A stretch of 64,000 nucleotides of DNA. It comes from an uncultured Desulfobacterales bacterium. GTDB lineage: Bacteria > Desulfobacterota > Desulfobacteria > Desulfobacterales > B30-G6. Both the position numbers and the translations under genes were made by a program. This document shows, one piece after another, positions 1,969-34,136 of this stretch. The first letter of the stretch is position 1. Every line of letters starts with the position of its first letter. Where the stretch lies: positions 6,288 to 70,287 of the forward strand of contig CAYVMI010000019.1 in the NCBI GenBank assembly GCA_964452555.1, in the 5' to 3' direction. The notes beneath the pieces were generated by a model. It made no database searches. It was not told the DNA's origin and saw only the letters and a program-made list of their open reading frames with translations.

Positions 1969-2125
1969 ATTAGGCTTCAAGGGGTCAAGGATTCCGGGTC
2001 CACGTGCAGCCAAAAACAGGATGCCCTGGGCAGCCTTCCGGCATCCAAGCATCCCAGCCTCCAAGCCATATCGGATGCCGATATCATATAGCTAAGAGCT
2101 TAAATAATTTGAGGAGATAATAATT

Positions 2126-3292
2126 ATGGGAAAAGTAGGAATCATTGGTGTGGGCCAGAGCACGTTTGTGCGGTCCTATCCCGGATCTATCAGGGAACTT
2201 GTGTTCGATGGCTTTAAAGATTGTATGCAGGATGCTCAGATTGCGGCCAGTGATATTGACGCATCCGTGGTATGCTCTGCACCGGAGTATGACAAACAGC
2301 GTTCGCCGGCGGGAGTATTCGCAGAGTACCTGGGTTTAAATCCCCAACCAACCTTTTATGTGGAAACCCTGTGTTCTTCCAGCACGACCGGTTTGAAATT
2401 GGCTTATTCCCTGGTAAAATCCGGACTGCATGATGTGGTGGCCGTTTTAGGTTTTCAAAAAATGTCTGAAATATCTTCATCCGAATCCCAAGAACGGATG
2501 GGACGCGGGGCCGATATTCAGTGGGAAAGTCCCTTCGGCACAATGATGCCGGCTTATTACGCCATGTACGCCCGCGCTTATCTGGAACAGAGTGGCGCTA
2601 CCCTGGATGATTTGGCGCTCATTCGTGTCAAAGCAGCAACCTATGGTCAAATCAACGATCGCGCTGTATATCGCAAGCCGGTGACATACGACATGTTTCA
2701 GGATCCCGAACATATTATGGGCCGACCTGTTTCAACGCCTCTGCGGGTTGGAGACTGCTGTGCCAATGCAGACGGCAGTTCCTGCATTATCGTTGCCAGT
2801 GAAGAAAGAGCCAAAGCCCTGGGTGTTGAGCCCATTTGGATTCTCGGCATAGGCTCGGCCACCACGAGCGTAAACCTGGCAGGTAGAGACCTCTTTTCAG
2901 GCCTTACGGTAGCTCAGCTTGCTGCCAACCAAGCCTACAACATGGCCGGCATTACCCCCCAGCAAGTCGACGTAGCTGAAGTGCATGACTGTTTTACCAT
3001 CGCTGAAATGATGGCGTATGAAAACCTGGGTTTTGCCGAGCCTGGCCAGGGCAAAGAGCTTATTCGCAACAAAGAAACCTATAAAGAAGGCAGTATTCCG
3101 GTTAATGTTGACGGCGGACTTCTGTCCAAAGGACACCCCATCGGGGCAACCGGCGGATCCCAGGTGCGCACAATTGTGCTTCAACTAAGAGGCCAAGCCG
3201 GCGACATCCAGGTAAAGGATCCTGAAATCGGCTTGGTACACAATATCGGCGGTGTGGGTCTTTATGGGAATGTCATCGTACTGGGTCGGTAA
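2126..3292 (+). CDS. SCP-x/DUF35-associated thiolase (thiolase domain protein)
   Basis: Nucleophile context VETLCSSSTTG and NVDGGLLSKGHPIGATG. GAGGAG SD. Followed by a DUF35 partner gene. Confidence 0.9.
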   Translation: MGKVGIIGVGQSTFVRSYPGSIRELVFDGFKDCMQDAQIAASDIDASVVCSAPEYDKQRSPAGVFAEYLGLNPQPTFYVETLCSSSTTGLKLAYSLVKSGLHDVVAVLGFQKMSEISSSESQERMGRGADIQWESPFGTMMPAYYAMYARAYLEQSGATLDDLALIRVKAATYGQINDRAVYRKPVTYDMFQDPEHIMGRPVSTPLRVGDCCANADGSSCIIVASEERAKALGVEPIWILGIGSATTSVNLAGRDLFSGLTVAQLAANQAYNMAGITPQQVDVAEVHDCFTIAEMMAYENLGFAEPGQGKELIRNKETYKEGSIPVNVDGGLLSKGHPIGATGGSQVRTIVLQLRGQAGDIQVKDPEIGLVHNIGGVGLYGNVIVLGR

Positions 3293-3344
3293 TACTGACC
3301 AAATCATAAACAAAATTTTTGCTTAACAACAATTACAACTTAAT

Positions 3345-3483
3345 AGGATTCGAGGATTCAAGGGGCCAACTGATAGCTTTTTAGGTGTTTAGGCCGAAGA
3401 CTGTTAGCAGCTGACAGCCTAATAGTCTTCAGTCTAAAAACCAGATAATGCTTGCCCCTCGGATCCTTGACTCCTTGAACCCT
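3345..3483 (+). repeat. Long imperfect intercistronic hairpin built from CAAGG/GGATTC and TAGAC/CTAA words, apex GCAGCTGACAG
   Basis: Outer arms 3345-3366 and 3454-3475 pair at 22 positions with 2 mismatches and 2 G:U. Inner arms are 3397-3408 and 3419-3430, apex 3407-3417. Paired by eye. Confidence 0.65.
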
Positions 3484-3500
3484 TATTATTCGGAGGCCTC

Positions 3501-3938
3501 ATGGGTAAAAAGCAGAGCATCGACGATCGTTTCAAACATTTTGGAACGGTAAGTTTTACAGCAACAACCAAAACAAATGAATTTATTGACTTTCTGAAGG
3601 ACGGTAAAGTCATGGGATCGCGTTGTATGGATTGCGGTCTGGTGTTCTTTCCCCCCAGAGCTGATTGTTACCATTGCTTGTCCAGTAATATGGAATGGGT
3701 TGAGGTCAGCGGCGCCGGCAAACTGGTTACTTTCAGCAAACTGACATTTGCACCCATCGGTTTTGAAGATGACGTACCCTACTGCATTGCGCTCTTGGAT
3801 TATGGTGCTTACAAAGTTTTTGGCCGCATCGCTTCTGATATTCCAGATGAAGATATCCAAATCGGCATGGACATGAAAACAGTGGTCAACACCCTGCCGA
3901 ATGGGCAGATGAACTATGTGTTCGAGCCGGCCAGCTAA
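3501..3938 (+). CDS. Zn-ribbon/OB-fold DUF35 protein (thiolase partner, BbsA-like)
   Basis: CMDCG...CYHC zinc ribbon. GGAGG SD. Positioned after an SCPx-type thiolase. Confidence 0.88.
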   Translation: MGKKQSIDDRFKHFGTVSFTATTKTNEFIDFLKDGKVMGSRCMDCGLVFFPPRADCYHCLSSNMEWVEVSGAGKLVTFSKLTFAPIGFEDDVPYCIALLDYGAYKVFGRIASDIPDEDIQIGMDMKTVVNTLPNGQMNYVFEPAS

Positions 3939-4000
3939 CATTATCTATCTGCTGAAAACACTATAATTATTTAGATACTGCGGGCTAAAAAAAATAATAT

Positions 4001-4068
4001 TCTGTGTTTTGTTTTTAGTATGTTGTGTTTCGTAAGCCCAACACGAAACACCCAACACGAAACACCCA
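4001..4068 (+). repeat. Imperfect hairpin of GTGTTTCGT / ACGAAACAC words
   Basis: 4025-4033 GTGTTTCGT pairs with 4043-4051 ACGAAACAC. The ACACGAAACACCC word is duplicated at 4055-4067 and partly complements 4003-4012. Confidence 0.45.
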
Positions 4069-4086
4069 TAAACTAAAGGTAAAATC

Positions 4087-4857
4087 ATGACCGAAGAAAA
4101 AACCATTATCGTTGAAAAAGAAAATAATGTGGCCACGATTAGCTTTGCAAGACCCAAACATAATGTCTTCAATATTGATATGATGACGTTGTTCTGTGAA
4201 GAGCTGGAAGGACTGGTGCAAGACGACGAATTAAAATGTTTGCTGCTCAAAGGACAGGGAGCCAGCTGGTGTGCAGGGGTTGATGTGGGTGATCACAAAC
4301 CGGAAATGGCGGACCAGATGATCGCTACCTTTAACCGGTCGCTTTTGCTCCTGGAAAGCTTTAAAATACCCACGATTGCCGCCGTACATGGTGCCTGTCT
4401 TGGCGGCGGTATGGAATATGCTGTTGCCTGTGATGTGGTTCTGGCCAGCGAAAAGGCCAAATTCGGGCAACCGGAAGTGAAACTGGGTTTCCTGCCGCCA
4501 TATGCGGCCATTCGCCTGCCCAAATTGGTCGGCCCGGCCAAAGCGATTGAAATCTGCTGCTCTGGTAAAATATATACAGCCGCCCAAGGTTTATCCATGG
4601 GATTTGTCAGTCAATGCATTCCTGCCGACGAGTTTGATGCTGCGGTAGATACATTTGTGGCCGAAATTACGGCCAGCAGTCCGCTGATCCTGCGGCTGAA
4701 CAAACAAGCTGTTAACCAACACCTGACAATGCAGACCGCCGATGCAGTGGAAAGTGTCAGCGACCTGTTCCTCAACACACTCATGAAAACAGAGGACACT
4801 CTGGAAGGCATTGCCAGCTTTTACGAAAAGCGTAGACCGGACTGGAAGAACAGCTAA
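4087..4857 (+). CDS. Enoyl-CoA hydratase/isomerase (crotonase) family protein
   Basis: CAGVDVG and GACLGGGMEYAVACD oxyanion-hole regions; typical length of 256 aa. Confidence 0.9.
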   Translation: MTEEKTIIVEKENNVATISFARPKHNVFNIDMMTLFCEELEGLVQDDELKCLLLKGQGASWCAGVDVGDHKPEMADQMIATFNRSLLLLESFKIPTIAAVHGACLGGGMEYAVACDVVLASEKAKFGQPEVKLGFLPPYAAIRLPKLVGPAKAIEICCSGKIYTAAQGLSMGFVSQCIPADEFDAAVDTFVAEITASSPLILRLNKQAVNQHLTMQTADAVESVSDLFLNTLMKTEDTLEGIASFYEKRRPDWKNS

Positions 4858-4860
4858 TTA

Positions 4861-5028
4861 AAGGGTTGGGATTCTGGAGGGTAGCAGAGCTAAGGTGTGG
4901 TGCCTTTGAACGGCGGCGGCAATCTCCAAACATTGAAATTGAATTAATATTCGTAAGCTATAATGCTCGAATGGTTTAAAGCTGCATATCGCCCGTACAC
5001 CCCTCAACCCTCCGGACCTCCAACCCTT
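4861..5028 (+). repeat. 22-nt inverted repeat arms enclosing a 124-bp ORF-less insert
   Basis: 4861-4882 AAGGGTTGGGATTCTGGAGGGT against 5007-5028 ACCCTCCGGACCTCCAACCCTT: 18 Watson-Crick pairs, 2 G:U, 2 mismatches. Confidence 0.6.
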
Positions 5029-5967: not shown

Positions 5968-7818
5968 ATGCACAAATTACTAACTGACGAACCAGGTAAA
6001 AAAATGCTGCTTCTTGGCAACGAAGCCATCGCTCGCGGGGCCATGGAAGCGGGTGTCGCATTTGCATCAACCTATCCGGGAACACCTTCTTCCGAAATTT
6101 CTTTGGCCCTATTTCAAATGTCCCAAGAATGTGATCTTTATTTTGAGTACAGCACCAACGAAAAAGTGGCCCTGGAAGTCGCCGCCGGTGCTGCCAATTC
6201 AGGGGTTAAGACCATGTGCATGATGAAACACGTGGGCCTGAACGTTGCCGCCGATCCCTTGATGACCCTGGCATACGTGGGTGTTACCGCCGGCATGGTG
6301 ATTCTGACCGCCGACGATCCATTCATGTTTTCAAGTCAGAATGAGCAGGACAACCGTTATTATGGCAAACTTTCCGGCTTGTCGATATTGGAGCCTTCGT
6401 CTGTGGAAGAGGCCAAGGAAATGATTCCGTATGCATTCGATCTTTCAGAAAAATTGAAGGAACCGGTACTTTTCCGTACGACCACGCGCATTAACCATTC
6501 CACCGGGGTTGTAACCCTGGGTGCTATGCAACCACGGAAAACACAAGGCGATTTCACCAAGGATCCCTTTAATCTCGTTACCGTACCGGCTGTCTCTCGC
6601 AAGTTGCATGTAAAGCTCCTGGAGAATATACAAAAGGCCGAAGCCATCTCGGAAACATCTGAATACAACATGTTAAACGGCCAAGGGCCCTGGGGCATCA
6701 TTTGCAACGGTGTCAGCTACAATTATGTTAGCGATGCCGTCAAAGATCTCGACATTGCCGATAAAGTTGCCACCCTGCGTATCGGGTTTTCACATCCCCT
6801 GCCGGAAAAACTCATCAAGAAGTTTATTGCCGAGCGTGAAAAGATTTTGGTGGTCGAGGAAGGCGAGCCCTATCTGGAAGAAGCCATCAAATCTTTTGCC
6901 CAAGAAGCCCAAAGTACAATACCCATAAAGGGCAAGGACGAGACTTTATTTAGCAGGCTATATGAATTCAACCCATCCCAAGTGAGAGAAATCGTCGCCA
7001 ATTATTTTGGTACAGGCTTTGAAGCCTCTCAAATACCGGATCTTTCGGATGTCCCTGAAATACCTCAAAGGCCACCCAACTTGTGTGCCGGTTGCTCGCA
7101 TCGGGCCACTTTTTATGCCGTAAAGAAAGCCATGGAAGGCGAAGAGACAGTCTATCCCACCGATATCGGCTGTTATACCCTTGGTTTTTTACCGCCCTTA
7201 TCCATGGGCGATTTTCTGATTTGCATGGGATCTTCAGTCAGTACAGCTTGCGGTTTTGCGCAAGCCACCGATAAAAAAGTGATTTCGTTTATCGGCGATT
7301 CCACTTTCTTCCATTCCGGTTTGACGGGTTTGGTCAACGCCGTCTTTAACGATCATAATTTTACTCTGATTATTCTGGACAACAGCACCACGGCCATGAC
7401 CGGGCACCAGCCACATCCGGGTGTTGACATGGGCAATTGGAACCTGGAAGGATACGGCCGTGTATCCATAGAGGAGGTTGTCAAGGGAATCGGCGTAAAG
7501 CACGTTAGTGTCATCAAACCTTTTAAAATTCGAAAAAGTGTCGAAGCCATCAAGGAAGCCGTGGCATTTGAAGGTGTTTCCGTTGTTATTGCCAAAGAAA
7601 TCTGTACGTTATATGCAAAAGGCTTGAAACAACTTAAAGTCAGAGCTTTCCAGGTTACCGACAAATGCAAGGACCACAAGGATTGCATTACCAGTCTGGG
7701 GTGCCCCGCATTCTATATACAAGACGCGCGCGTTAAGATCGACGCCGATTTATGCGTCGGATGTGCGGTGTGTGCTCAAATTTGCCCGGAGAATGCTATT
7801 TTACCTGTTAAAGCGTAG
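5968..7818 (+). CDS. iorA: Indolepyruvate:ferredoxin oxidoreductase alpha subunit
   Basis: TPP motif GDSTFFHSG and a C-terminal CVGCAVCAQICPENA 4Fe-4S motif. I prefer the ATG at 5968 (AAGGA SD) to the TTG at 5917 given in the track. Confidence 0.92.
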   Translation: MHKLLTDEPGKKMLLLGNEAIARGAMEAGVAFASTYPGTPSSEISLALFQMSQECDLYFEYSTNEKVALEVAAGAANSGVKTMCMMKHVGLNVAADPLMTLAYVGVTAGMVILTADDPFMFSSQNEQDNRYYGKLSGLSILEPSSVEEAKEMIPYAFDLSEKLKEPVLFRTTTRINHSTGVVTLGAMQPRKTQGDFTKDPFNLVTVPAVSRKLHVKLLENIQKAEAISETSEYNMLNGQGPWGIICNGVSYNYVSDAVKDLDIADKVATLRIGFSHPLPEKLIKKFIAEREKILVVEEGEPYLEEAIKSFAQEAQSTIPIKGKDETLFSRLYEFNPSQVREIVANYFGTGFEASQIPDLSDVPEIPQRPPNLCAGCSHRATFYAVKKAMEGEETVYPTDIGCYTLGFLPPLSMGDFLICMGSSVSTACGFAQATDKKVISFIGDSTFFHSGLTGLVNAVFNDHNFTLIILDNSTTAMTGHQPHPGVDMGNWNLEGYGRVSIEEVVKGIGVKHVSVIKPFKIRKSVEAIKEAVAFEGVSVVIAKEICTLYAKGLKQLKVRAFQVTDKCKDHKDCITSLGCPAFYIQDARVKIDADLCVGCAVCAQICPENAILPVKA

Positions 7819-9953: not shown

Positions 9954-10026
9954 GACGGTTTTGTAAAAAGTTCAAATTCAAGTGCGTGCTGCACAACGCA
10001 GAAGTTGAGCTTTTTACGAAACCGTC
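9954..10026 (+). repeat. Intercistronic hairpin with a 22-bp stem, ending 15 nt before the next start codon
   Basis: 9954-9975 pairs with 10005-10026. The only two non-Watson-Crick positions are U:G on the plus-strand transcript and would be C:A on the minus strand. Inner mini-hairpin TGCGT...ACGCA. Confidence 0.75.
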
Positions 10027-10986: not shown

Positions 10987-11768
10987 TGTCTTCTTCTAAA
11001 CCTATTTACGTGGGTGTGGATGTGGGTGCGTCCCGCACAAAGGTCGCGATCCTAAATGCCCAGAAAAGCCTGTTAGGTCACGCGGTTCAAAAGTCTGGTA
11101 CGGACTTCGCTGCGACGGCGAATCGTTGTCTGCAAATGTCCTTGGAGATGGCGGGTGCCACTAAGGAAGATATGAAGCGCGTTGTGTCCACCGGATATGG
11201 CCGCAAGAATGTCACCTACACGCATGCGACCAAAACCGAGATCGGATGCCATGCCAAAGGCTGTTATCTTTATTACCCAACGGCGATCACGATTATCGAC
11301 ATCGGCGGCCAGGATAATAAAGTCATAAAATTAGATGAAAGCGGTCGTCGAACCGGTTTTAAAATGAATCGCAAATGTGCAGCCGGTACAGGGGCATTTC
11401 TGGAAGAAATGTCACCCCGCCTGGACATCCCGTTGGAAGACATGGATGGATTGGCCCGGCAATCCAAAGATATGGTCAAGTTAGGCAGTTTCTGTACTGT
11501 ATTTTCAGGAACCGAGGTGCTGGAAAATATCAGGCGGGGCAAAAAAATAAGTGATATTATCAAGGGACTGTTTTACTCGGTAACCAAACGTGTCATCGAA
11601 ATGGATGCCCTCAGTGAAAAAGTCGTAATGACTGGCGGGGTCGTGGCCCACAATCCCTATCTGGTTACCATGATGGAAGAAATAATTGGCAGATCCATCA
11701 GCGTGCCTGAACATCCGCAACTTACCGGTGCCATTGGCGCAGCAATTTATGCCCTAGAAGCGGTTTAG
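10986..11768 (+). CDS. Acyl-CoA dehydratase activase (BcrAD/BadFG/HgdC-type ATPase)
   Basis: GVDVGASRTKVA and DIGGQDNKVI ASKHA motifs. Cys residues in NRKCAAGTG and GSFCTVF. Confidence 0.9.
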   Translation: MSSSKPIYVGVDVGASRTKVAILNAQKSLLGHAVQKSGTDFAATANRCLQMSLEMAGATKEDMKRVVSTGYGRKNVTYTHATKTEIGCHAKGCYLYYPTAITIIDIGGQDNKVIKLDESGRRTGFKMNRKCAAGTGAFLEEMSPRLDIPLEDMDGLARQSKDMVKLGSFCTVFSGTEVLENIRRGKKISDIIKGLFYSVTKRVIEMDALSEKVVMTGGVVAHNPYLVTMMEEIIGRSISVPEHPQLTGAIGAAIYALEAV

Positions 11769-11913
11769 GCTGTAGACTGGTAGACTACTAGTTGGTTGCA
11801 ATATAGAGATTTCCGCATTTGATCGGTTAAAAGTTTTAGGTATTAGGTTTTTGGGCATTATAATCTAATAGCAATTTACGCCTAACTGCCCAACAGTCTT
11901 AAGCCTTATAACC
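11762..11913 (+). repeat. Long, loosely paired word-repeat hairpin (TAGAC / CTAA family)
   Basis: 11762-11795 GGTTTAGGCTGTAGACTGGTAGAC... is partly complementary to 11881-11913 CCTAACTGCCCAACAGTCTTAAGCC.... Pairing is patchy. Confidence 0.35.
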
Positions 11914-13273: not shown

Positions 13274-15352
13274 ATGCTGGAAAGTTTGTTTCGCCCCAAG
13301 TCTGTCGCCGTGATCGGGGCATCTACCAAAGAATTGTCCATCGGAAATCGTGTCATCCGCAATCTGGTCGATTTTGGATTTAAAGGTCCCATATATCCCA
13401 TAAATCCAAAGGCGGATGAAGTGCGCGGCATCAAGGCCTACAAATCTATTTTGGATGCACCCGACAACATCGATGTGGTTCACATGGTTATTCCGGCCAA
13501 GTTTGTGCCGATGGCAGTCGAAGACTGCGGCAAAAAGGGTGTCAAAAACATTATTATCAATTCAGGTGGGTTCTCTGAAATCGGACCTGAAGGCGAAGCC
13601 TATGAAAAGGATTTTCTTGAAAAGGCCAGGCAGTATAATATCCGCGTTCTCGGCCCTAATTGCCAGGGCATCATCAACAGCGATCCGGACGTCAGAGCCT
13701 ATTGCAACTTTACCTTCACCAAACCGGATATCGGCCATATCTCCATTGTGGCCCTCAGTGGCGGTGTTGCCGAAGTTATTCACCAGGGTTTTTCAGCCAT
13801 GGGTGTTGGCACGCGGATATACGCATCCAACGGCAATGCCTGCGACATTACCATTCCGGAAATCATCCAATATCTCGGTGATGATGAAGGCACCCGTGTA
13901 ATCGTCACCTATGTTGAAGGTTTGCGGGACCCGGCTACGTTTATGAAAGTGGCCCGCGAAGTTGCCGCCAAAAAGCCAATTTTAGCCATGAAAGCCGGGC
14001 GCACAGTGGAAGGCGCCAAGGCGGCCGCTTCCCATACCGGTGGACTTGCCAAGGAGGATTTAGCCACGGACCTGATTTTCAAAAAGGCCGGTGTGTTGAC
14101 CTTTATGGACGAAGGTGAACTCATTCAGGCTGCGGCGGCTTTTGCTTCCCAGCCGATACCCAAAGGCAACCGCGTCGGACTGATTACCAATACAGGCGGA
14201 CCCGCTGTTATCGCCACTGACATCCTGGTGGGAGCCGGAGCTGAGATTCCACCGCTTTCGGCAAAAACCGAGACTGTATTAAAAGAGAATCTTTACCCGG
14301 AGGCGTCCGTCAACAATCCGGTGGATGTATTGGCCACCGGAAATGCCGCCCATTACCGGACCTGCATGGATGCCATGCTGGATGACGATGCTTTCGATGC
14401 ACTGTACATCAATTTCGTGACGCCCTTTTTCGTGGATACCGACAGTATCGCCAAAGAAATAGCGGCGGTTAATCAGTTGCAGCAGAAACCCATGGTCTGC
14501 AATCTGATGACGGATAAACGTCAATGGACTGAAACAGTAAAGATCCTCAAGGAGGCCCAGGTGCCTACATTCAGCCTGCCGGGTGAGGCTGCGCGTGCCA
14601 TGACAGCTCTGGTGCGCTATCAAGGCACGCGATCACGTGACATTGGAACGGCAACGGTGTTTGATGATGTGGACAAATCCAAAGTGGCCGACATCCTATC
14701 AGCTGCTTCTGATGCGGGGCGTAGTTTTTTAACATCCGCGGATGCATATGATATTTTAACGGCCTATGGCATTCCTTGCGCTGAATACGCCATGGCCGCA
14801 ACACCCGAAGATGCGGTTGCCACAGCGGAAAATATCGGCTTTCCGGTGGTTGTCAAGGCTGACGCCGCCGCTATTGTTCACAAAAGCGACATGGGGGCTG
14901 TGGCTGTCAATTTAACCAGCGCCGCCGATGTTCGGCAGACAGTGACTGACATGCAGCAACGCCTCAAAGCGGATGACCTCACCTTCCTGATTCAGAAATT
15001 CGTACCGGAAGGGCTGGAAGTTATTCTGGGGGCTAAAGCCGAACCGGGCTTGGGACACTTGATCATGTTTGGCATGGGTGGCATCTATGTGGAGGTGCTC
15101 AAAGATGTGATTTTCAATCTGACGCCTGTTACCGAATTCGAAGCCCGGGAAATGATGGATGGCATTCAATTAGCGCCGATACTCAAAGGCGTCCGCGGGG
15201 AAACTGGTGTTTACCAGGACGGTATTGCAGAACTCATTCAGCGCCTATCGCAGCTGGTATCCGATCACCCGTCGATTCAAGAATTGGATCTGAATCCAAC
15301 CTTGGCCTTTGAGGAAAGTGTGGTGGCTGTGGATGTACGCATCAGTATTTAA
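13274..15352 (+). CDS. ADP-forming acyl-CoA synthetase (fused CoA-binding and ATP-grasp domains)
   Basis: KSVAVIGAS CoA-binding N-terminus and ATP-grasp C-terminal half. ATG at 13274 with AGGAGGA SD, preferred to 13202. Confidence 0.9.
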   Translation: MLESLFRPKSVAVIGASTKELSIGNRVIRNLVDFGFKGPIYPINPKADEVRGIKAYKSILDAPDNIDVVHMVIPAKFVPMAVEDCGKKGVKNIIINSGGFSEIGPEGEAYEKDFLEKARQYNIRVLGPNCQGIINSDPDVRAYCNFTFTKPDIGHISIVALSGGVAEVIHQGFSAMGVGTRIYASNGNACDITIPEIIQYLGDDEGTRVIVTYVEGLRDPATFMKVAREVAAKKPILAMKAGRTVEGAKAAASHTGGLAKEDLATDLIFKKAGVLTFMDEGELIQAAAAFASQPIPKGNRVGLITNTGGPAVIATDILVGAGAEIPPLSAKTETVLKENLYPEASVNNPVDVLATGNAAHYRTCMDAMLDDDAFDALYINFVTPFFVDTDSIAKEIAAVNQLQQKPMVCNLMTDKRQWTETVKILKEAQVPTFSLPGEAARAMTALVRYQGTRSRDIGTATVFDDVDKSKVADILSAASDAGRSFLTSADAYDILTAYGIPCAEYAMAATPEDAVATAENIGFPVVVKADAAAIVHKSDMGAVAVNLTSAADVRQTVTDMQQRLKADDLTFLIQKFVPEGLEVILGAKAEPGLGHLIMFGMGGIYVEVLKDVIFNLTPVTEFEAREMMDGIQLAPILKGVRGETGVYQDGIAELIQRLSQLVSDHPSIQELDLNPTLAFEESVVAVDVRISI

Positions 15353-15371: not shown

Positions 15372-15406
15372 AGCTATAAGCTGCTAAGAGCCAGCAGTTA
15401 AGAGCT
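15372..15406 (+). repeat. Small word-repeat hairpin (AGCTGCT / AGCAGTT)
   Basis: 15379-15385 pairs with 15393-15399 including one G:U, with a patchy extension. Confidence 0.35.
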
Positions 15407-17054: not shown

Positions 17055-17200
17055 AAAATTTATACAGATCAATAAATCTTTTATATGATGCAGGACATCC
17101 GCCCTGCGATTATATTGGCAGAGGTTTGTAACAAAATATAAATGCGGCGAAGCCGCACCAAATAAAATCGTGAAACGATTTTATTTTAAGGAGGAAACTT

Positions 17201-18394: not shown

Positions 18395-18422
18395 ATTAAA
18401 AGCCCTTAATTTATTTTATGAA

Positions 18423-18447
18423 GCCCCGGTTTTCCCGGGGCTTTTTT
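18423..18447 (+). terminator. Rho-independent terminator after the thiolase gene
   Basis: GCCCCGG / CCGGGGC stem (18423-18429, 18435-18441) followed by TTTTTT. Confidence 0.75.
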
Positions 18448-18476: not shown

Positions 18477-18546
18477 GCGACGGTCTTTCGCCCGCTGGGC
18501 GAAAGACCGTCGCGTTATAATAAAATCGTGAAACACGATTTTTTTT
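18477..18546 (+). terminator. Two further tandem hairpins (17-bp GC-rich stem; AT-rich stem plus U-tract)
   Basis: GCGACGGTCTTTCGCCC / GGGCGAAAGACCGTCGC is a perfect pair (18477-18513). AAAATCGTG / CACGATTTT (18522-18542) is followed by a T run. Confidence 0.6.
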
Positions 18547-18551
18547 GAGTT

Positions 18552-19667: not shown

Positions 19668-19706
19668 TTTTGGTTTATTGGGTTCATTGGATTCGTTGAG
19701 TTAAAC
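19668..19706 (+). repeat. Solo GT-rich arm of the four-helix-bundle cassette repeat family
   Basis: TTTATTGGGTTCATTGG (17 nt) is the exact reverse complement of part of the AC-rich arm at 22956-22990. It ends in GAGTTAAACAA, like the left arm at 22504-22545. Confidence 0.6.
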
Positions 19707-19794
19707 AAATTGCTGGCATGCAATGACGTTATAAATAGGTCATAGCTGATAGGTCCTGGGCTCGTATTGCGTTCCGCTTTTGGTTTGATCGCTA

Positions 19795-19861
19795 TCGGTA
19801 TCGCTATCGGAATTGAAAAAGCAGGATCCGACACCGATTTTGATACCGATGGCGATACCGA
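19795..19861 (+). repeat. Hairpin of GATACCGA/TCGGTATC words
   Basis: 19795-19810 pairs with 19846-19861: 16 bp with a single U:G on the plus strand. Confidence 0.65.
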
Positions 19862-19933
19862 CCTCACAGCTACCTAACAGCCTACAGCCTAAACACCTAA
19901 AAGGCTGTTTGTTAATGGAGGTATCGTTAATTT

Positions 19934-22489: not shown

Positions 22490-22503
22490 TAGCAACTGAA
22501 TGT

Positions 22504-22990
22504 TTTTTGAGTTCGTTGAGTTTATTGTGTTTATTAAGTTAAACAATGGGTATATCGATTAAAAGATTTGAAGAAATTGATGCATGGCAAGCATCACGAG
22601 AATTAACCAGATTCGTATATAGTGCAATCAACCGTAACGAAAGGTTTCGTAAGGATTTCAGGCTCTCAAATCAAATTCAAGGTGCAGCCATATCAACAAT
22701 GTCAAATATAGCTGAAGGATTTTCAAGAAAAAGCAATAAGGAATTTATTCAATTCCTATTTATTTCTAAAAGTTCTGCAGCTGAAATACAAAGCCAACTG
22801 TATATTGCACTTGACCAAAATTATATTGACGAAGCTACTTTTGATATCATCTACGAACAAGCTGAAAAGGTATCAAAGCTCAACTCTGGCTTCATAAAAT
22901 ACTTGCGAACTAAGATTTAATTCAGTGTAAAATTTATTCCATTTCAAATAAGTGGCAACTCAAATAACCCAATGAACCCAATAAACATAA
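22504..22990 (+). other. IVS-like cassette 1: GT-rich left arm, four-helix-bundle ORF, AC-rich right arm
   Basis: Left arm 22504-22541 (GAGTTCGTTGAGTTTATTGTGTTTATT) is imperfectly complementary to right arm 22956-22990 (CAACTCAAATAACCCAATGAACCCAATAAAC). Confidence 0.6.
22546..22920 (+). CDS. Four-helix-bundle protein (23S rRNA intervening-sequence protein / Avd-like family)
   Basis: 124 aa with SNIAEGFSR and SKSSAAEIQSQL motifs typical of the family. Paralog at 30651-31025. Confidence 0.9.
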   Translation: MGISIKRFEEIDAWQASRELTRFVYSAINRNERFRKDFRLSNQIQGAAISTMSNIAEGFSRKSNKEFIQFLFISKSSAAEIQSQLYIALDQNYIDEATFDIIYEQAEKVSKLNSGFIKYLRTKI

Positions 22991-23463
22991 AAGCCGGATA
23001 TTTCCCAGGCACCATCGGCAGGATTGCGGAAATGCATGCCCGCTATTATAGTTTGCATTGGAACTTTGGTGTCTATTTTGAAGCCAAAGTGGCATCAGAG
23101 CTGTCAGAGTTTGCTGGCAGATTTGATGAACAACGAGATGGATTCTGGACAGCTTGGGAGTCTGATCGTGTTGAGGGATCCCTAATAATCGATGGCATTA
23201 AGGCCGATTCAGAAGGTGCTCATTTGCGTTGGTATATCGTTTCCGAAAAGATGCGTGGTTACGGAACCGGCGACAAGCTTCTCTCCCTTGCTATGCAACA
23301 CTGTCGCATACAAAATTTTTCTAATATTTACCTTTGGACCTTTGCCGGATTGGACTCGGCACGGCACCTATATGAAAAACATGGTTTCAGCCTGGTTCAC
23401 GAACAAAGCGGCGATCAGTGGGGTACGCCGGTTACAGAGCAAAAGTTTGAGTGTTATCTCTGA
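22972..23463 (+). CDS. GNAT family N-acetyltransferase
   Basis: MRGYGTGDKLL acetyl-CoA-binding motif. Its ATG lies inside the AC-rich repeat arm (CCAATGAACCC). Confidence 0.85.
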   Translation: MNPINIKAGYFPGTIGRIAEMHARYYSLHWNFGVYFEAKVASELSEFAGRFDEQRDGFWTAWESDRVEGSLIIDGIKADSEGAHLRWYIVSEKMRGYGTGDKLLSLAMQHCRIQNFSNIYLWTFAGLDSARHLYEKHGFSLVHEQSGDQWGTPVTEQKFECYL

Positions 23464-23464
23464 A

Positions 23465-23555
23465 AAAGCTTGGATGCCGGGATGCCAGAAAGCTGGGATG
23501 CTGCCAATAGCTACAAGTAAGATGCAGCGTCCAGGCATCCTTGCTTTCCAGCTTT
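23465..23555 (+). repeat. Imperfect hairpin of GGATGCC / GGCATCC words
   Basis: 23495-23504 pairs with 23524-23533, GGATGCC 23480-23486 with GGCATCC 23534-23540, and AAAGCTTGG with CCAGCTTT. Confidence 0.5.
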
Positions 23556-25822: not shown

Positions 25823-25860
25823 TAGAGCTAAGGCAATACACGCCTTAGCTCTATTTTATT
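25823..25860 (+). terminator. Rho-independent terminator or attenuator after the binding-protein gene
   Basis: TAGAGCTAAGGC / GCCTTAGCTCTA is a perfect 12-bp stem followed by TTTTATT. Confidence 0.75.
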
Positions 25861-25978
25861 GATTGAATCCCAATGCGTTAAGATCTACTTGAGCCCTTAA
25901 ATCCTGGAGCCCTTTGATCCTTATGGATAGGGTACCACAGACAGTGGGTCTGATGCGGCATCTGGAAAGAAATTTGGA

Positions 25979-26734: not shown

Positions 26735-26856
26735 CCTTGCGTTAGCCTGCTGGAAGACTATCCGGCGGGGATGCCATAAAGCTGCTAATTGCGAATCGTC
26801 TCTGGCGGCATTTAGGCATCCCGGTGTTCTAGCTTAACAGCTATTTTTCTACTTCT

Positions 26857-26940
26857 CTCAACAAACTCAACGAACCCAAAAAAATCAACCAACAAGACAA
26901 CTCAATGAACCTAAAAAAAACAACAAACTCAATAAACGCG
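26857..26940 (+). repeat. Solo AC-rich arm (CAACAAACTCAACGAACCC... words) overlapping the livF start
   Basis: Same word vocabulary as the right arms at 22956-22990 and 31059-31103. No local GT-rich partner was seen. Confidence 0.55.
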
Positions 26941-29534: not shown

Positions 29535-29606
29535 GAGACTGTAGGCTGTAGGTTTTTAGACTGTAGGCAGCTGACAGTCTACAGTCTAAAAACCTACAGT
29601 CTAAGC
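29535..29606 (+). repeat. Intercistronic hairpin with a perfect 21-bp stem, apex GCAGCTGACAG
   Basis: 29546-29566 CTGTAGGTTTTTAGACTGTAG is the exact reverse complement of 29579-29599. The loop contains the same 11-mer as 3407-3417. Confidence 0.8.
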
Positions 29607-29623: not shown

Positions 29624-30607
29624 GTGTTGGATCTAATCGAAAGTTACGCTGAAGAATTAAAGCTCATACGTAAAGCCGGCACTAAAGCCTGGGTATTTGC
29701 TGTCATTATTGCCTTATTTCTGCTACCCCTCTATGCACCTGAAGATTTTGTTTACGTTGCAACCATCATCGCCATATTTTCCATCGGTATTATCGGTCAA
29801 AACATCCTGATTGGCTATACCGGCCAAATCTCCTTTGCTCAGGCGGGATTCTTTTGCATCGGGGCCTTTGCTTTCGGGCATCTATACCGGGCTGGTGTAC
29901 CCTGGCCCCTGAGTGTATTAGCCGCCGGTATAATTACCGGATTTGTGGGTATCCCGGTGGGATTTCCATCTCTCAGGCTCAAAGGTCCTTACCTGGCCAT
30001 TGCTACCATGGGATTTGGCATTGCTGTGTATCAGATCTTCGTCAACACCCCCCTACTCTCCGGCGGACGCATGGGATTGATGATAACCAAATTAGAGCCG
30101 ATTTTCGGGCTCTCGACAGTCAATACGTATTACTATATCAATTTGATCATCGCTTCCATATTTACACTGGTGGCCTACAATATTGTTTCCTCATACATGG
30201 GACGCGCCTTTATCGCCATCCGTGACAATGACATTGCCGCTGAAGTTCTGGGAGTTAATCTGACTCGATACAAATTGATGTCTTTTGCCATTAGCTCTTT
30301 TTATGTGGGCATCCAGGGCGGCCTATATGCCTTATTTCTGGGCTATTTGGAACCTAACATGTTCACCTTTATGGAAACCATTACCTTTCTCGTTGCGGTT
30401 ATCGTGGGAGGGCTGGCTTCTGTGGAAGGTGCCATCATGGGGGCGGCCTTTGTAATTTTAATTCCGACGCGTCTTAGCGATCTGCGTGAATTTATTCCGG
30501 TTGTGTACGGTGTCGTCATAATTCTCATTCTGATATTTCAACCCGGCGGCTTGGCCGGCCTGTGGATGAAAATTCGGCTTTATTTTCGCAATTGGCCATT
30601 CCGTTAG
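29624..30607 (+). CDS. livM: ABC transporter permease, LivM type
   Basis: Polytopic hydrophobic protein with LivM-like sequence. GTG start with GGGAGG SD. Confidence 0.88.
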   Translation: MLDLIESYAEELKLIRKAGTKAWVFAVIIALFLLPLYAPEDFVYVATIIAIFSIGIIGQNILIGYTGQISFAQAGFFCIGAFAFGHLYRAGVPWPLSVLAAGIITGFVGIPVGFPSLRLKGPYLAIATMGFGIAVYQIFVNTPLLSGGRMGLMITKLEPIFGLSTVNTYYYINLIIASIFTLVAYNIVSSYMGRAFIAIRDNDIAAEVLGVNLTRYKLMSFAISSFYVGIQGGLYALFLGYLEPNMFTFMETITFLVAVIVGGLASVEGAIMGAAFVILIPTRLSDLREFIPVVYGVVIILILIFQPGGLAGLWMKIRLYFRNWPFR

Positions 30608-31103
30608 TTCTTTGAGTTTATTGTGTTTATTGAGATTATTGAGTTGAATAATGGGAATGTCGATAAAAAGTTTTGAAGAAATTGATGCATGGAAAGCATC
30701 TCGAACGTTGACCAGATTCGTTTATGGCGCAATCAAAAGCAATGAACATTTCAAGAGGGATTTCAGGCTTTCTAACCAAATTCAAGGTGCGGCCATATCA
30801 ACAATGTCAAACATAGCGGAAGGATTCTCAAGAAGAAGCAATAAAGAATTTATTCAATTTTTATTTATTTCTAAAAGCTCTGCTGCTGAAATACAAAGCC
30901 AGTTGTATGTGGCCCTTGACCAAAACTACATTGATGAAGACACATTTAATATGATTTACGCACAAGCAGAAAAAGTATCAAAGCTCAATTCTGGATTCAT
31001 TAAATATCTTCGCACAAAAATTTAATCGTTCGAAAGGTGGCTCAAACACATAGAATCGTCAACAAAACAAACACAATGAACTCAACAAACACAATAAACA
31101 CAT
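30608..31103 (+). other. IVS-like cassette 2: GT-rich left arm, four-helix-bundle ORF, AC-rich right arm, inserted between livM and livH
   Basis: Left arm 30608-30647 against right arm 31059-31103. An approximately 33-nt alignment has about 6 mismatches by eye. Confidence 0.6.
30651..31025 (+). CDS. Four-helix-bundle protein (23S rRNA intervening-sequence protein / Avd-like family), second copy
   Basis: 124 aa. By my count it differs from the 22546-22920 product at about 16 residues. Confidence 0.9.
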   Translation: MGMSIKSFEEIDAWKASRTLTRFVYGAIKSNEHFKRDFRLSNQIQGAAISTMSNIAEGFSRRSNKEFIQFLFISKSSAAEIQSQLYVALDQNYIDEDTFNMIYAQAEKVSKLNSGFIKYLRTKI

Positions 31104-31113
31104 AAGGTATCAT

Positions 31114-31998
31114 ATGGAACGCGTTCTACAGTATATGGTTTCCGGTCTCTCCCAAGGCAGTCTGTATGCATTGGTAGCAATTGGCGTAGTCCTCATCTAC
31201 CGATCCAACCGTGTATTAAATTTTGCACATGGTGATGTTACCACTGCGGGTGCTTTTATCGCGCTGGCCTTCATGCTCATGAACATGAACTGGTGGTTGG
31301 CCGCCATATTCGCTTTGGTTTTAGGCGCATTGATCTCCATACTGTTCTATTTCGTGATTTTAATTCCGGCCCAACGCCGTGAAGCTACCCATTTAGGCCA
31401 AGTTATCCTAACTTTGGGCTTCGGGCTTATTCTGCAAGGACTAATTCTCAGATTCTGCAATACGGCTGAACCGCAAAATTTTCCCTTCCCTCTTTCCGAT
31501 GTAAAAGTATTCACCTTCGGAAACATAATAATAAGCCATCTCAGTTTGGGTACGCTCATTGTAGGCATAGCAGGAAGCCTGCTTTTTTATCTTTTGATCC
31601 AGAAAACCCGGATCGGACTTGCCATGCGGGCCACATCCGAAAATCTTCCTGCGGCCCAGACCTTGGGCATTCCGACCCGGAGCATACTGGCGCTTTCCTG
31701 GGCCATGGCGGCTTTCACAGGCATACTCGCTGGATTATTTCTGGCAGCCCAACTTCTCATCGACCCATTCTATATGTTGGAACCTTTCTTAAAAGGGTTT
31801 GCTGCCGCTATCCTGGGTGGACTCAACAGTTTGCCCGGGGCCATTGTTGGGGGTTTACTCCTGGGGGTGGTGGAAGCCCTCTTCGGCGGTTTTATTTCGG
31901 TTGCTTTTAAGAATACGCTCGCATTTCTGATAATCATTGTTGTTTTGGTGTTCCGACCCGAAGGTTTGCTTGGCAAGGAATTTATTGAAAGAATATAA
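31114..31998 (+). CDS. livH: ABC transporter permease, LivH type
   Basis: Polytopic hydrophobic protein with LivH-like sequence. Confidence 0.88.
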   Translation: MERVLQYMVSGLSQGSLYALVAIGVVLIYRSNRVLNFAHGDVTTAGAFIALAFMLMNMNWWLAAIFALVLGALISILFYFVILIPAQRREATHLGQVILTLGFGLILQGLILRFCNTAEPQNFPFPLSDVKVFTFGNIIISHLSLGTLIVGIAGSLLFYLLIQKTRIGLAMRATSENLPAAQTLGIPTRSILALSWAMAAFTGILAGLFLAAQLLIDPFYMLEPFLKGFAAAILGGLNSLPGAIVGGLLLGVVEALFGGFISVAFKNTLAFLIIIVVLVFRPEGLLGKEFIERI

Positions 31999-32057
31999 AT
32001 GTATTTTTTCGTATAGTCATTACTGACATATTTTTCATTTGCTTTGGGATATTGGTA

Positions 32058-33332
32058 ATGGATGAAGCACGTTTAAATAGGGCGAAAAAATACCGCTGGT
32101 ACATCTTCTGGGTATTGGCGCTGGGATATGTATTGGTCTATTTTCACCGTCTTTGTCCAGCAGTTGTTGCTGTTGAGATGATGAAAGATCTAAATGCAAC
32201 CGGAGCTTTGACCGGCTTTTTAGGAGCAGCCTATTTCTATCCATACGCTGCCATGCAGTTACCGGCCGGTCTTTTGTCCGATTCCTGGGGACCGCGCAAT
32301 ACGATCACATTGTTTTTCAGCGTTGCTTTCATTGGTTCCGTCATCCTTGCTATGGCGCCTTCTGTTTCATTGGCAATTTTAGGCCGAACCCTGGTGGGGT
32401 TGGGCGTTGCGATGCTGTTTGTTCCCACTATGAAGATTTTGGCTGAGTGGTTTCATGCCAGAGAGTTCGCAATGATGACCGGCATTCTTATGGCCTTGGG
32501 CGGACTGGGTTCTCTAATTGCGGCGACACCACTCGTATGGCTCAGCAATTGGATCGGCTGGCGCCAGTCTTTCTTATTTGTGGGCATATTTACGCTAATG
32601 CTGGCCGTATTCGTTTTTATTATTGTCCGTGACAAACCCGCTGACAAAGGATTGCCGTCACCAGTAGAGACGGCGCAAACAGTCATAAAACCGATAGCAC
32701 TCATGGCCGGCGTTAAGAAAGTCGTGACGACTACATATTTTTGGCCGGTTGCCGTATGGTTCTTTTTTGATTGTGGCATATTTTTTTCCTTTGGCGGGCT
32801 ATGGGGCGGACCCTATCTTATGCAGGTTTACGGATACAGCAAAAGCCAATCCGGTCAGATCCTCTCCATGTTGGCCATCGGGATGATCGTGGGCAGTCCC
32901 TTGTTGAGCTATCTGTCAAATAACGTCATTAAATCACGCAAAAAGACAATTGTCCTATCAAGTTTGCTCGTTTTAATTCTGATGCTGCCGCTTGCCTTTT
33001 TTACGGCATCTATCCCTTTGATTTGGCATTATATCATTTGCCTGGGTCTGGGTATATTTTCCAGTGCCATCGTGGTGATCGGCTTTACTACAAATAAGGA
33101 GCTATTTCCGGTTCAAATGGCTGGCACCGCCACCGGCATGATTAATCTCTTTCCATTTCTAGGCGGAGCTGTATTTCAGCCGATACTGGGCTTGGTGTTG
33201 GAATTAAACGGCAAAGTGAATGATGCCTTCACACTGGCCGGTTATCGACAGGCGTTTCTAGTTTTATTCGCCTGCAGTGTCATCGCACTCATCTCCAGTT
33301 TTTTCTTAAAAGAAACGCTTCAGGACCAATAA
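32058..33332 (+). CDS. MFS transporter
   Basis: About 12 hydrophobic segments and a GLLSDSWGPRN motif-A-like loop. ATG at 32058 preferred to the TTG at 32052. Confidence 0.88.
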   Translation: MDEARLNRAKKYRWYIFWVLALGYVLVYFHRLCPAVVAVEMMKDLNATGALTGFLGAAYFYPYAAMQLPAGLLSDSWGPRNTITLFFSVAFIGSVILAMAPSVSLAILGRTLVGLGVAMLFVPTMKILAEWFHAREFAMMTGILMALGGLGSLIAATPLVWLSNWIGWRQSFLFVGIFTLMLAVFVFIIVRDKPADKGLPSPVETAQTVIKPIALMAGVKKVVTTTYFWPVAVWFFFDCGIFFSFGGLWGGPYLMQVYGYSKSQSGQILSMLAIGMIVGSPLLSYLSNNVIKSRKKTIVLSSLLVLILMLPLAFFTASIPLIWHYIICLGLGIFSSAIVVIGFTTNKELFPVQMAGTATGMINLFPFLGGAVFQPILGLVLELNGKVNDAFTLAGYRQAFLVLFACSVIALISSFFLKETLQDQ

Positions 33333-33349
33333 GCTGGCAAGTTTGGACG

Positions 33350-33421
33350 CTAGAAGGCCAGATAGCGCTTTTAGATCAGAGCTTGAGCAGCTCCCCGCAG
33401 GATAGCTACCCAGCTTTCTAG
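33350..33421 (+). repeat. Imperfect hairpin of CTAGAA/AGC words
   Basis: 33350-33366 against 33405-33421: 13 Watson-Crick pairs, 1 G:U, 3 mismatches. Confidence 0.4.
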
Positions 33422-33588
33422 AAAAAGTGCCCCATCAATCACTGTTATCACCAACCCCTTGAAATTTGGATAAGATAGTTTATATTATTAGAATCTTTGT
33501 TATTTTTATATATTGCTGAATCATGAAAAGTGAGCGACAGCTCACGTAATAATAGAATCGCCAGGCGGTTTTATTTAGGAGGAAAACG

Positions 33589-34044
33589 ATGAAACTCAAA
33601 CAGATCACCATATCGATCGAAAATGCACCCGGCAGATTATTGGAAGTAACTGAAGCCTTAGGCAATGCCGGAATCAATTTGCGAGCCTTAAACCTGGTGG
33701 ACACCGGGGCATTCGGCCAACTTCGCTTACTGGTTTCGGATGTTAAGAAAACGCGACGGATCTTGATGGATATGCAGGCCAGCGCTCGAGTCGATGAGGT
33801 CCTGGCCGTCGAAATTGAAGATAAACCCGGCAGTCTGGCTGCTATTTTAAAGCCATTGAAAGCCGCCAGCATCAACGTTCGCTACATGTATGCCTTTATC
33901 GGCTTATCATCGAATAAAGCTGTAATGATTTTCAAATTTAGTGACAACGACAAAGCGATCAAACTTATTCAAGAAATTGGTGTCAATATTATAGATGCAC
34001 AAACGTTTGGGATACTAGAAACCGGAAATAACGGAAACCAATAG
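33589..34044 (+). CDS. ACT domain-containing (amino-acid-binding) protein, tandem ACT
   Basis: Two ACT-like beta-alpha-beta-beta-alpha-beta units (ITISIENAPGRLLEV...; AVEIEDKPGSLAAIL...). Confidence 0.85.
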   Translation: MKLKQITISIENAPGRLLEVTEALGNAGINLRALNLVDTGAFGQLRLLVSDVKKTRRILMDMQASARVDEVLAVEIEDKPGSLAAILKPLKAASINVRYMYAFIGLSSNKAVMIFKFSDNDKAIKLIQEIGVNIIDAQTFGILETGNNGNQ

Positions 34045-34136
34045 TCAGGATACAGAAGACAGAATTCAGAAACTAAGCATGGGAAAGACTAAGAGATACA
34101 GCGCATTCTGAATTCTGTCTCCTGACTCCTGTCTTC
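34043..34136 (+). repeat. Hairpin of CAGAATTC/GACAG/TCAGGA words
   Basis: 34058-34071 GACAGAATTCAGAA is the exact reverse complement of 34106-34119. AGTCAGGA 34043-34050 pairs with TCCTGACT 34120-34127. Alternative registers are possible. Confidence 0.7.

Follow-up and report, generated by a model that had tools for sequence, protein, structure and literature searches.

Tandem-word hairpins in the operon spacers of an uncultured Desulfobacterales bacterium and their apparent kinship with gene-bearing intervening-sequence elements

Many of the spacers between co-directional genes in a stretch of 64,000 nucleotides from an uncultured Desulfobacterales bacterium (assembly GCA_964452555.1, contig CAYVMI010000019.1, positions 6,288 to 70,287; the whole stretch is called the window here) contain hairpins with a characteristic build: a long stem, each arm of which is an imperfect tandem array of a 6-9-nt word or of its complement. 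The loop can be short, can hold nested hairpins or can hold a small open reading frame (ORF), which belongs to TIGR02436 in the window and to TIGR04256 (GxxExxY) in relatives. We favor, at somewhat better than even chances, the explanation that the hairpins are structured insertion elements peculiar to this lineage, built like the intervening sequences (IVSs) of 23S rRNA, and that they reside in transcribed operon spacers, some with an ORF and most without. The architecture is general for two ORF families, the elements are placed in the sense of the operon, and relatives differ by lineage-specific gain, nesting and replacement of elements and by growth of the arms in whole words. Two hairpins of the set enclose PF05635 genes, which ties the set to IVS-type insertion elements and not to RNA structures designed by the host.

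Gene-Bearing Cassettes in the Window

A first-pass annotation of this DNA, which had described hairpins in the spacers of its plus-strand gene block, overlooked two genes that encode four-helix-bundle proteins of the PF05635/TIGR02436 family, annotated as "23S rRNA intervening-sequence protein" (Table 1). The two proteins are 87% identical, and the closest solved structure is that of XCC0516 (PDB 2GSC, E = 2e-11). Each gene is contained in a cassette, in which G/T-rich words of the TTGAGTT/ATTGTGTTT type lie 5' of the ORF and their complement (AACTCAA/AACACAAT) lies 3' of it, and the minimum free energy (MFE) fold of each full cassette contains a long-range stem that closes around the ORF. When aligned, the cassettes proved to be homologous from arm to arm, over ~495 bp, and no further. 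Encoding a PF05635 protein in the loop is a property of both cassettes, and not of the gene-less hairpins described below; a six-frame profile search for decayed PF05635 genes in the window and in the related loci L001, L002, L003, L006 and L008 returned the two intact genes only.

The GNAT ORF that follows cassette 1 (start at 22972) shares its first codons with the right arm of this cassette. More generally, right arms of the AACCCAAYR family were seen to extend into the beginning of the gene that follows, whose ATG and first codons (MNPIN..., MNST...) they provide, at 22956-22996 of the window, 5380-5410 of L165 and 1220-1243 of L155. Since a 9-nt period keeps expansions in frame, slippage in such arms could vary the N-termini of proteins or mislead gene callers.

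Gene-Less Hairpins of the Same Build

Thirteen dyads had been listed by the first-pass annotation, and each of these intervals was folded on both strands and compared with 200 dinucleotide shuffles. Seven of them were more stable than every shuffle, two were marginal and four were no better than chance. The description of the arms as low-complexity words was sustained for most intervals, with a maximum autocorrelation of 0.43-0.59 at lags of 6-9 nt versus 0.34 in coding DNA, but not for the stem at 9954-10026 (0.28), which is an ordinary hairpin and probably a different kind of element. Likewise, the longer words cited as examples are enriched in spacers, being 6-40 times denser there than in coding DNA, while CAAGG is not enriched. 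A solo arm proposed at 25890-25922 was borne out, as this interval does not fold. The interval 1972-2070, on the contrary, fails to form the proposed hairpin because, as judged from its sequence, the left arm of one word family adjoins the right arm of another.

The assertion that nearly every spacer of the plus-strand block carries such a structure was an overstatement: word arrays were found in ~17 of its 29 spacers of at least 40 nt, and 10 whole spacers of this set have z < -3. In the minus-strand block (38.3-64 kb), no word arrays were found except for one solo arm at ~38330-38368. Nor are the words private to each spacer. The GATACCGA hairpin, loop included, has homologs at other sites in L161 and L165, and reading of the sequences revealed that 3384-3442 and 29542-29603 share the center GCAGCTGAC together with TTTTTAG/CTAAAAA flanks. 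Most hairpins begin 0-60 nt past a stop codon and do not cover the ribosome-binding site of the gene that follows. On the whole, the earlier observation is partly confirmed: the feature is real and was in part over-described.

Table 1. Cassettes, hairpins and arms of the window, and GxxExxY genes of related loci. The z values are from the comparison with dinucleotide shuffles; the fractions give the number of shuffles that folded as stably.
Feature	Position	Strand	Words and arms	Statistics and context
Cassette 1	22500-22996	+	left arm ~22500-22531; right arm ~22956-22988	PF05635 ORF 22546-22920 (Pfam, 6.3e-30); arm cofold -28.5 kcal/mol; between nadE and GNAT gene
Cassette 2	30607-31106	+	left arm ~30609-30645; right arm ~31070-31107	PF05635 ORF 30651-31025 (Pfam, 2.5e-29; TIGR02436); arm cofold -38 kcal/mol; between two liv permease genes (livH, livM)
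Gene-less hairpin, nested	3345-3483	+	outer stem GGATTCGAGGATTCAAGGGGCC / GCCCCTCGGATCCTTGACTCCTTGAACCC; inner stem 3384-3442, TAGGC/GTCTA family	z -8.1 sense, -5.1 antisense; 0/200
Gene-less hairpin	29535-29606	+	TAGGCTG/CAGTCTA family, period 7; 27-bp stem (25 Watson-Crick, 2 G:U)	z -9.3 sense, -7.2 antisense; 0/200; between acyl-CoA ligase gene and livH
Gene-less hairpin	19795-19861	+	GATACCGA family, period 6	z -6.4; 0/200; nested within outer arms at ~19735-19760 and 19862-19890 (spacer fold)
Gene-less hairpin	23465-23555	+	GGATGCC/GGCATCC family, period 8	z -3.9; 0/200; begins 2 nt past GNAT gene stop codon
Gene-less hairpin	34043-34136	+	CAGAA/TTCTG family	z -5.0; 0/200; overlaps ACT-domain gene stop codon
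Gene-less hairpin	4861-5028	+	22-bp arms AAGGGTTGGGATTCTGGAGGGT / ACCCTCCGGACCTCCAACCCTT around structured 124-nt interior	z -3.2 sense, -4.2 antisense; 0/200
Long clean hairpin	9954-10026	+	~31 bp, without repeated words	z -8.4; 0/200
Marginal hairpin	4001-4068	+	GTGTTTCGT / ACGAAACAC family, period 7	z -2.9; 2/200; words also in L002 at 4650-4713
Marginal hairpin	26770-26835	+	GGATGCC family	z -2.3 sense, +0.2 antisense (sense only)
Solo left-type arm	19669-19702	+	cassette word family (GGTTTATTGGGTTCATTGGATTCGTTGAGTT)	27 blastn-short matches to flanks of PF05635 genes in metagenome loci
Solo right-type arm	26855-26904	+	cassette word family (CTCAACAAACTCAACGAACCC...)	read from spacer sequence; directly before livF
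Solo C-rich arm	25890-25922	+	complement of GGATTCAAGG-type words, period 8	z +0.3
Two unmatched arms, unsupported as hairpin	1972-2070	+	GGATTC-type left arm, GGATGC-type right arm	z -1.0; only 9 paired positions by aligner
Word arrays, partial pairing	11762-11913	+	TAGAC/TAGGT	z -1.0 sense, -1.8 antisense; not beyond chance
Short word array, weak dyad	15372-15406	+	AGCTNNN	z -1.5; not beyond chance
Weak dyad	33350-33421	+	CTAGAAGGCC / GCTTTCTAG	z -1.6 sense (not beyond chance), -2.7 antisense
GxxExxY gene	L155, 6032-6469
GxxExxY gene	L161, ~11270-11660
GxxExxY gene	L163, 8029-8412
GxxExxY genes	L173-L178, 1501-1905

Cassettes in Metagenomes and Relatives

The generality of the cassette architecture was evaluated in 80 metagenome loci (49-79% identity), obtained from a scan with alignment of homologs, 76 of which were testable. 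When the 80 nt upstream and the 100 nt downstream of the PF05635 gene were compared, a significant flanking inverted repeat, i.e., one above the 99th percentile of shuffles, was present in 35 of the 76 loci, while 0.8 were expected. Shuffles took the place of a control with swapped partners, which was dropped as a poor null because the same word families and a complementary composition are common to arms of different loci. The arms are periodic (best lag 9, followed by 7 and then 8), with autocorrelations of 0.55 and 0.51 versus 0.34 in coding DNA, and are made of words such as GTTCAAG, GTCTAAA, GTTTCTG or GTTTACACA. They also fit closely around the gene, as the left arm ends at a median of 16 nt before the start codon and the right arm begins at a median of 7 nt after the stop.

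These cassettes have a definite polarity. In a strict composition test, 18 loci had a G/T-rich upstream arm together with an A/C-rich downstream arm, and none had the reverse. The PF05635 gene points in the same direction as the upstream ORF in 59 of 62 loci and as the downstream ORF in 59 of 65, well above a baseline of 75%, and ~95% of the ORF-bearing versions are in sense orientation. This sense orientation within operons is the strongest transcript-related signal that was found.

Operons of stable RNA can also be hosts: in L083 (829-1559) and L084 (574-1304), a PF05635 cassette lies between co-oriented tRNA-Lys and tRNA-Arg genes, although not in an rRNA context, for which Rfam gave no evidence in the 20 cassette loci scanned nor in the window. 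In L085, a match to a group II intron domain (1460-1531; Rfam RF00029, 56.7 bits) was found on the opposite strand, ~120 nt downstream of the PF05635 cassette.

A second gene family, GxxExxY (TIGR04256/PF13366, a PD-(D/E)XK family), occupies word hairpins in five independent loci of relatives that belong to several Thermodesulfobacteriota lineages. Here, the arm motif is conserved (TCACCGCAGAG.../...CTCTGCGGTGA; TCACCGCAGAGACGCAGAG... / ...CTCTGCGTCTCTGCGGTGA), is accompanied by small subterminal hairpins and is found on both sides of the gene in four of the five loci, L178 having the downstream arm only. In L173, the arms around the gene were seen in everted order. Gene-less hairpins of the GxxExxY word family occupy other spacers of the same genomes.

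Turnover of Spacers between Relatives

The operon of the Liv-type transporter allowed the same spacers to be followed through a series of relatives. In L002, L006 and L008 (82-69% protein identity), word hairpins are found at the same spacers, made of other words and often nested, and L161 and L165 likewise have word hairpins in these spacers. In L004, L005, L007 and L017 (68-72% identity), the spacers measure 12-30 nt and have no hairpins, from which it follows that the hairpins are lineage-specific additions.

The occupant of a given site also changes. Between livH and livM, the window and L165/L166 have a PF05635 cassette, L161, L006 and L008 have a gene-less hairpin from a different family, and L002 has 244 nt of spacer without obvious hairpin; in the cassette of L165, the right arm has expanded to ~19 tandem AACCCAAYR 9-mers versus ~4 words on the left. 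The spacer between the ACT and PAS genes contains a CAGAA/TTCTG hairpin in the window, L168, L170, L171/L165 and L161, with varying numbers of words and with loops that range from 34 nt to ~300 nt, the latter made of nested hairpins, and is occupied by other families in L155/L172 and L002. Arms resembling the solo arm at 26855-26904 are found in L002, L161 and L165 ahead of livF or of the MFS gene. In all, orthologous arms differ by gain or loss of whole words and not by paired substitutions. Insertion, nesting, replacement and change in word number, rather than compensated substitution, are thus the modes of evolution of these spacers, and covariation statistics are therefore inapplicable, as the arms do not align in register.

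Two further observations concern these spacers. In L165 (5254-5399) and L166 (4947-5399), which are 99.8% identical assemblies, the livM/MFS spacer carries a lone GCTGGGATGC-type hairpin in one assembly and two copies, ~300 nt apart, in the other. This is the one presence/absence difference between near-identical assemblies, and it reflects either recombination between the hairpins or assembly collapse. Moreover, toxin-antitoxin pairs (PhdYeFM-PIN, MazE, PIN_3) are located in the same hairpin-rich spacers in L165 (7091-7719), L171 (1705-2333) and L155 (8282-9462), and the window has none at those spacers. It would seem that small selfish genes of various kinds can settle in such spacers.

Strand and RNA-Level Signals

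The first-pass annotation had pointed to the two cleanest stems, in which every non-Watson-Crick position was said to be U:G on the plus-strand transcript, as a hint of selection on RNA structure in the sense orientation. The non-Watson-Crick positions of these stems are indeed mostly G:U (2 and 3), accompanied by one true mismatch in each. When G:U pairs were counted on a strand-symmetric alignment of the arms, the sense:antisense ratio was 26:17 in the window (p = 0.22), 81:60 in the cassette stems and 107:77 for both together (p = 0.03). An excess of this size could arise from a C-to-T bias on the non-template strand, and counts based on MFE folds of whole spacers gave no asymmetry (147 vs. 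162). The sense strand folded more stably in 8 of the 13 intervals, which is not significant (p = 0.58). A further regularity is that the G-rich arm is 5' in all seven word hairpins of the window and in 25 cases versus 8 in relatives, the exceptions coming from particular families; this makes 32 of 40 cases with clear skew, although two different scans are pooled in this figure. The placement of the elements speaks for a transcript-related feature, and the wobble and strand-stability tests speak weakly for selection on the sense-strand RNA; the earlier interpretation is, to that extent, partly supported.

A scan for canonical terminators, whose criteria were a short loop and a stem followed by a T-run, flagged none of the listed word hairpins. 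It flagged classical GC-rich stems followed by T-runs at 977-1024, 18420-18444, 25823-25853 and 36545-36561. The first of these sites coincides with a perfect 24-bp palindrome (976-1025; AAATTTAAATTCACCCCGCACTAA / TTAGTGCGGGGTGAATTTAAATTT) that is located 5' of the first operon, has T-runs on both sides and resembles a terminator acting in both directions.

Alternative Explanations

It is improbable, in our view, that the hairpins were selected by the host as operon punctuation, that is, as mRNA 3'-end stabilizers or processing sites that arose in place and set the expression of each cistron, as the repetitive extragenic palindromes (REPs) of E. coli do, with the PF05635 cassettes being unrelated passengers. 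Their start just past stop codons with the next ribosome-binding site free, the persistence of a hairpin at the same spacer in at least five lineages, the predominance of G-rich arms at the 5' side and the slight excess of sense G:U pairs all speak for such a role. However, the liv operon of distant relatives does with short, hairpin-free spacers, different families swap as occupants of one site, hairpins are nested, solo arms are common, one family of elements is found at non-orthologous sites, and the other gene block of the window lacks hairpins. All of this is better accounted for by insertion and turnover than by a designed regulator. The same location of stable stems past stop codons could recall intrinsic terminators or attenuators, but this reading was rejected because no listed word hairpin had the short loop and T-run of the consensus. 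In addition, canonical terminators already serve the operon ends (977-1024, 18420-18444, 25823-25853), the hairpins lie between cistrons of a single transporter operon, their stems are far longer than termination needs and two of them enclose a gene, all of which makes termination very improbable.

Mobility could alternatively operate at the DNA level, the hairpins being miniature elements of the MITE (miniature inverted-repeat transposable element) or REP type that a transposase encoded elsewhere would move by recognizing single-stranded DNA hairpins, with RNA structure as a by-product. Inverted arms and dispersed copies are present; families are common to genomes at differing sites, insertions are nested, the copy number of one hairpin differs between two near-identical assemblies, and homologs of both ORF families are mostly found on very short contigs, as is the case for multicopy repeats. 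Nevertheless, a Pfam scan that covered 43 ORFs of the window, leaving out ten minus-strand ORFs at 44-50 and 52.7-64 kb, gave no match to a reverse transcriptase, an integrase, a RAYT or another transposase; the cassette ends showed no target-site duplication in the few pairs of filled and empty sites compared; the arms, other than those of the GxxExxY family, are variable word arrays and not a conserved sequence for recognition; and the strong sense bias within operons is unexpected for a DNA transposon. We consequently rate this possibility as quite low. The absence of integrase and reverse transcriptase domains among the ORFs scanned also led us to drop readings based on integron attC sites and on diversity-generating retroelements (DGRs). 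Finally, the dyads might be a neutral by-product of mutation, generated by slippage-prone spacer DNA and by template switching at quasi-palindromes, with neither element identity nor function. The arms do act like minisatellites, four of the thirteen listed dyads are at chance level and solo arms occur, but non-repetitive loops are common to homologous copies at different sites, such arms specifically enclose two unrelated families of small ORFs in many taxa, and the neighboring gene block of the same genome has no hairpins in its spacers, so that this explanation has very little probability.

A number of results weigh against the identification of the whole set as IVS-like insertion elements. 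Among the 76 testable loci, only 35 pass the strict inverted-repeat test. When the arms of the window were compared by blastn-short with the flanks of the 80 PF05635 loci, the TTGAGTT family was the sole match, and the GGATTC, TAGGC, GGATGC, GATACC and CAGAA families found none. The six-frame profile search detected no ORF remnants in the loops of gene-less hairpins, and neither a target-site duplication at the cassette ends nor a mobility enzyme among the window ORFs scanned was identified. The wobble-pair strand asymmetry is weak, and in some families the C-rich arm is the 5' one (8 of 33 in relatives). Furthermore, cleavage of the mRNA between cistrons could be harmful, and not neutral, to the host. 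Descent of the other word families of the window from PF05635 cassettes was accordingly left aside as unsupported by the blastn-short comparison; direct descent is supported for the TTGAGTT family only, and we infer the kinship of the remaining families from architecture and co-occurrence.

A Proposed Model for the Elements

For IVS-like insertion elements, the following scheme can be envisaged. The arms would change by replication slippage and would remain able to pair because word arrays pair in any register, so that such hairpins would withstand the instability of their own arms; the pairing is possibly also kept up by template switching from one arm to the other. As the element would be transcribed with its operon, a stem of 20-35 bp would form in the mRNA. 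By analogy with the IVSs of 23S rRNA, these stems are probably sites for RNase III or barriers to exonucleases: they would be cut by the former or would block 3' exonucleases, and through either event the insert would be cut out or insulated and the polycistronic transcript divided into segments. This would explain why operons put up with inserts between cistrons, as rRNA genes do with theirs. The gene-less hairpins would then be ORF-less members, or relatives, of the cassette class.

A broader proposition, which we put forward tentatively and consider rather less probable than not, is that the IVSs of 23S rRNA are just the conspicuous part of a much larger class, as yet undescribed, of hairpin cassettes embedded in transcripts. 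In these, TIGR02436 and TIGR04256 genes, carried in minisatellite-armed stems, would colonize co-directional mRNA, tRNA and rRNA spacers, would be excised by RNase III, would leave ORF-less hairpins behind as landing pads on which further insertions would nest, and would be spread by their small proteins, either through nuclease-driven homing or through nucleic-acid chaperoning.

The origin of rRNA intervening sequences has been an open question since the 1990s. The same is true of what the PF05635/TIGR02436 and GxxExxY/TIGR04256 proteins do, although both families are very large, with thousands of homologs apiece, mostly on fragmented contigs. The present data place these genes routinely in sense-oriented tandem-word hairpins within ordinary operons, with gene-less hairpins of like build in the neighboring spacers. 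Testable predictions follow, namely that RNase III processes the mRNAs of operons at these stems, together with gain and loss of cassettes at hairpin sites and slippage-driven evolution of the arms. On the practical side, such elements break metagenome assemblies and extend predicted N-termini, and they may reshape operon expression in sulfate-reducing Thermodesulfobacteriota that possess anaerobic degradation pathways.

Genomic Setting and Other Features

The plus-strand gene block spans 1216-38222 and is followed by the minus-strand block. For anaerobic acyl-CoA metabolism, the former encodes an SDR protein, thiolase/DUF35, an enoyl-CoA hydratase, an indolepyruvate-type oxidoreductase, CoA ligases and parts of a BcrAD/HgdB-type dehydratase. 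It also contains mutY, nadE and lepB, the genes for the Liv-type ABC transporter and the acyl-CoA ligase that goes with it, and those for a two-component system, an ACT protein and an MFS transporter. The minus-strand block codes for arginase, nitroreductase and polysaccharide functions. The nearest genome to the window is a metagenome-assembled genome (MAG) of an uncultured deltaproteobacterium, followed by MAGs of Desulfobacteraceae and Desulfarculaceae. An ORF of 1958 aa at 44058-49934 lies in a stretch of 51-55% GC and is followed by a glycosyltransferase/polysaccharide cluster with 37-39% GC (56000-62000), both unlike the hairpin-rich block (43-50% GC).

An Rfam search of the whole window at the gathering threshold gave no match, and the window contains neither tRNA nor tmRNA genes that could be found. 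A small twin-hairpin motif, unlike the word hairpins, lies directly 5' of the ribosome-binding site of several genes, with the form GCGNC-loop-GNCGC, then AAAATCG-(T)GAAA(C)-CGATTTT, then GGAGG. It occurs at 17143-17200, 18477-18551, 33555-33588 and 36545-36565 of the window and at 14117-14150, 6690-6710 and 16280-16318 of L002, has been kept between the two and has no Rfam match at the gathering threshold.

Relation to Known Systems

As extragenic hairpins present in many copies between co-transcribed genes, the elements recall the REPs and bacterial interspersed mosaic elements (BIMEs) of enterobacteria. REP elements protect upstream mRNA from 3' exonucleases, are ~35 bp long, have a sequence that is conserved genome-wide and are tied to the RAYT transposase. 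The present hairpins differ in that at least five unrelated word families coexist within 34 kb, with stems of 17-35 bp or more, variable words and nesting, and in that the associated ORFs are TIGR02436 and TIGR04256 and not RAYT; no RAYT (IS200/IS605-like) domain was found among the window ORFs scanned.

The arms themselves, with best lags of 6-9 nt, resemble the tandem 5-11-nt units found in intergenic DNA as the short tandemly repeated repetitive (STRR) sequences of heterocystous cyanobacteria, the TAACTGA heptamers and the long simple sequence repeats (LSSRs). Imperfect intergenic tandem repeats of ~7-9 nt have a patchy distribution across taxa, with slippage as a likely driver, and heptamers such as TAACTGA occur in Beggiatoaceae, cyanobacteria and Bacteroidetes (PMC4679880). 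Those are direct arrays, often just upstream of start codons, whereas here each array pairs with its complement to yield a hairpin, and the arrays may flank a gene.

Concerning the encoded protein, PF05635 proteins resemble Avd, the accessory protein of DGRs (PMC10053308). The window proteins, however, stand alone and have liv permease, nadE and GNAT genes as neighbors, and no Pfam match to a reverse transcriptase was obtained for the window ORFs scanned, template/variable repeat pairs not having been searched for. PF05635 ORFs have also been noticed between cas genes, e.g., cmr3 and cmr2 (PMC3936711). In the literature that was covered, which is incomplete, no description was found of operon spacers in which tandem-word hairpins form cassettes around PF05635 or GxxExxY genes, nor of their gene-less companions.

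A close parallel is offered by the IVSs of 23S rRNA in Leptospira and Coxiella, which have the same protein family (S23p/PF05635) in the loop and ends that form a long complementary stem; they too are located within a longer transcript in sense orientation, and ORF-less versions exist. PF05635 ORFs are known in insertions of 23S rRNA and, in bacteria of the candidate phyla radiation (CPR), of 16S rRNA, and the sporadic distribution of 23S rRNA IVSs suggests horizontal spread (PMC4990558; bioRxiv 10.1101/2024.02.27.582315). Excision of IVS stems by RNase III is experimentally established (PMC4990558). The present elements differ from them in that they are hosted by mRNA operons, or by a tRNA operon in L083, and not by an rRNA helix, their flanks being protein or tRNA genes, and in that the arms are tandem arrays of 6-9-nt words, whereas the inverted repeats of rRNA IVSs are unique sequences.

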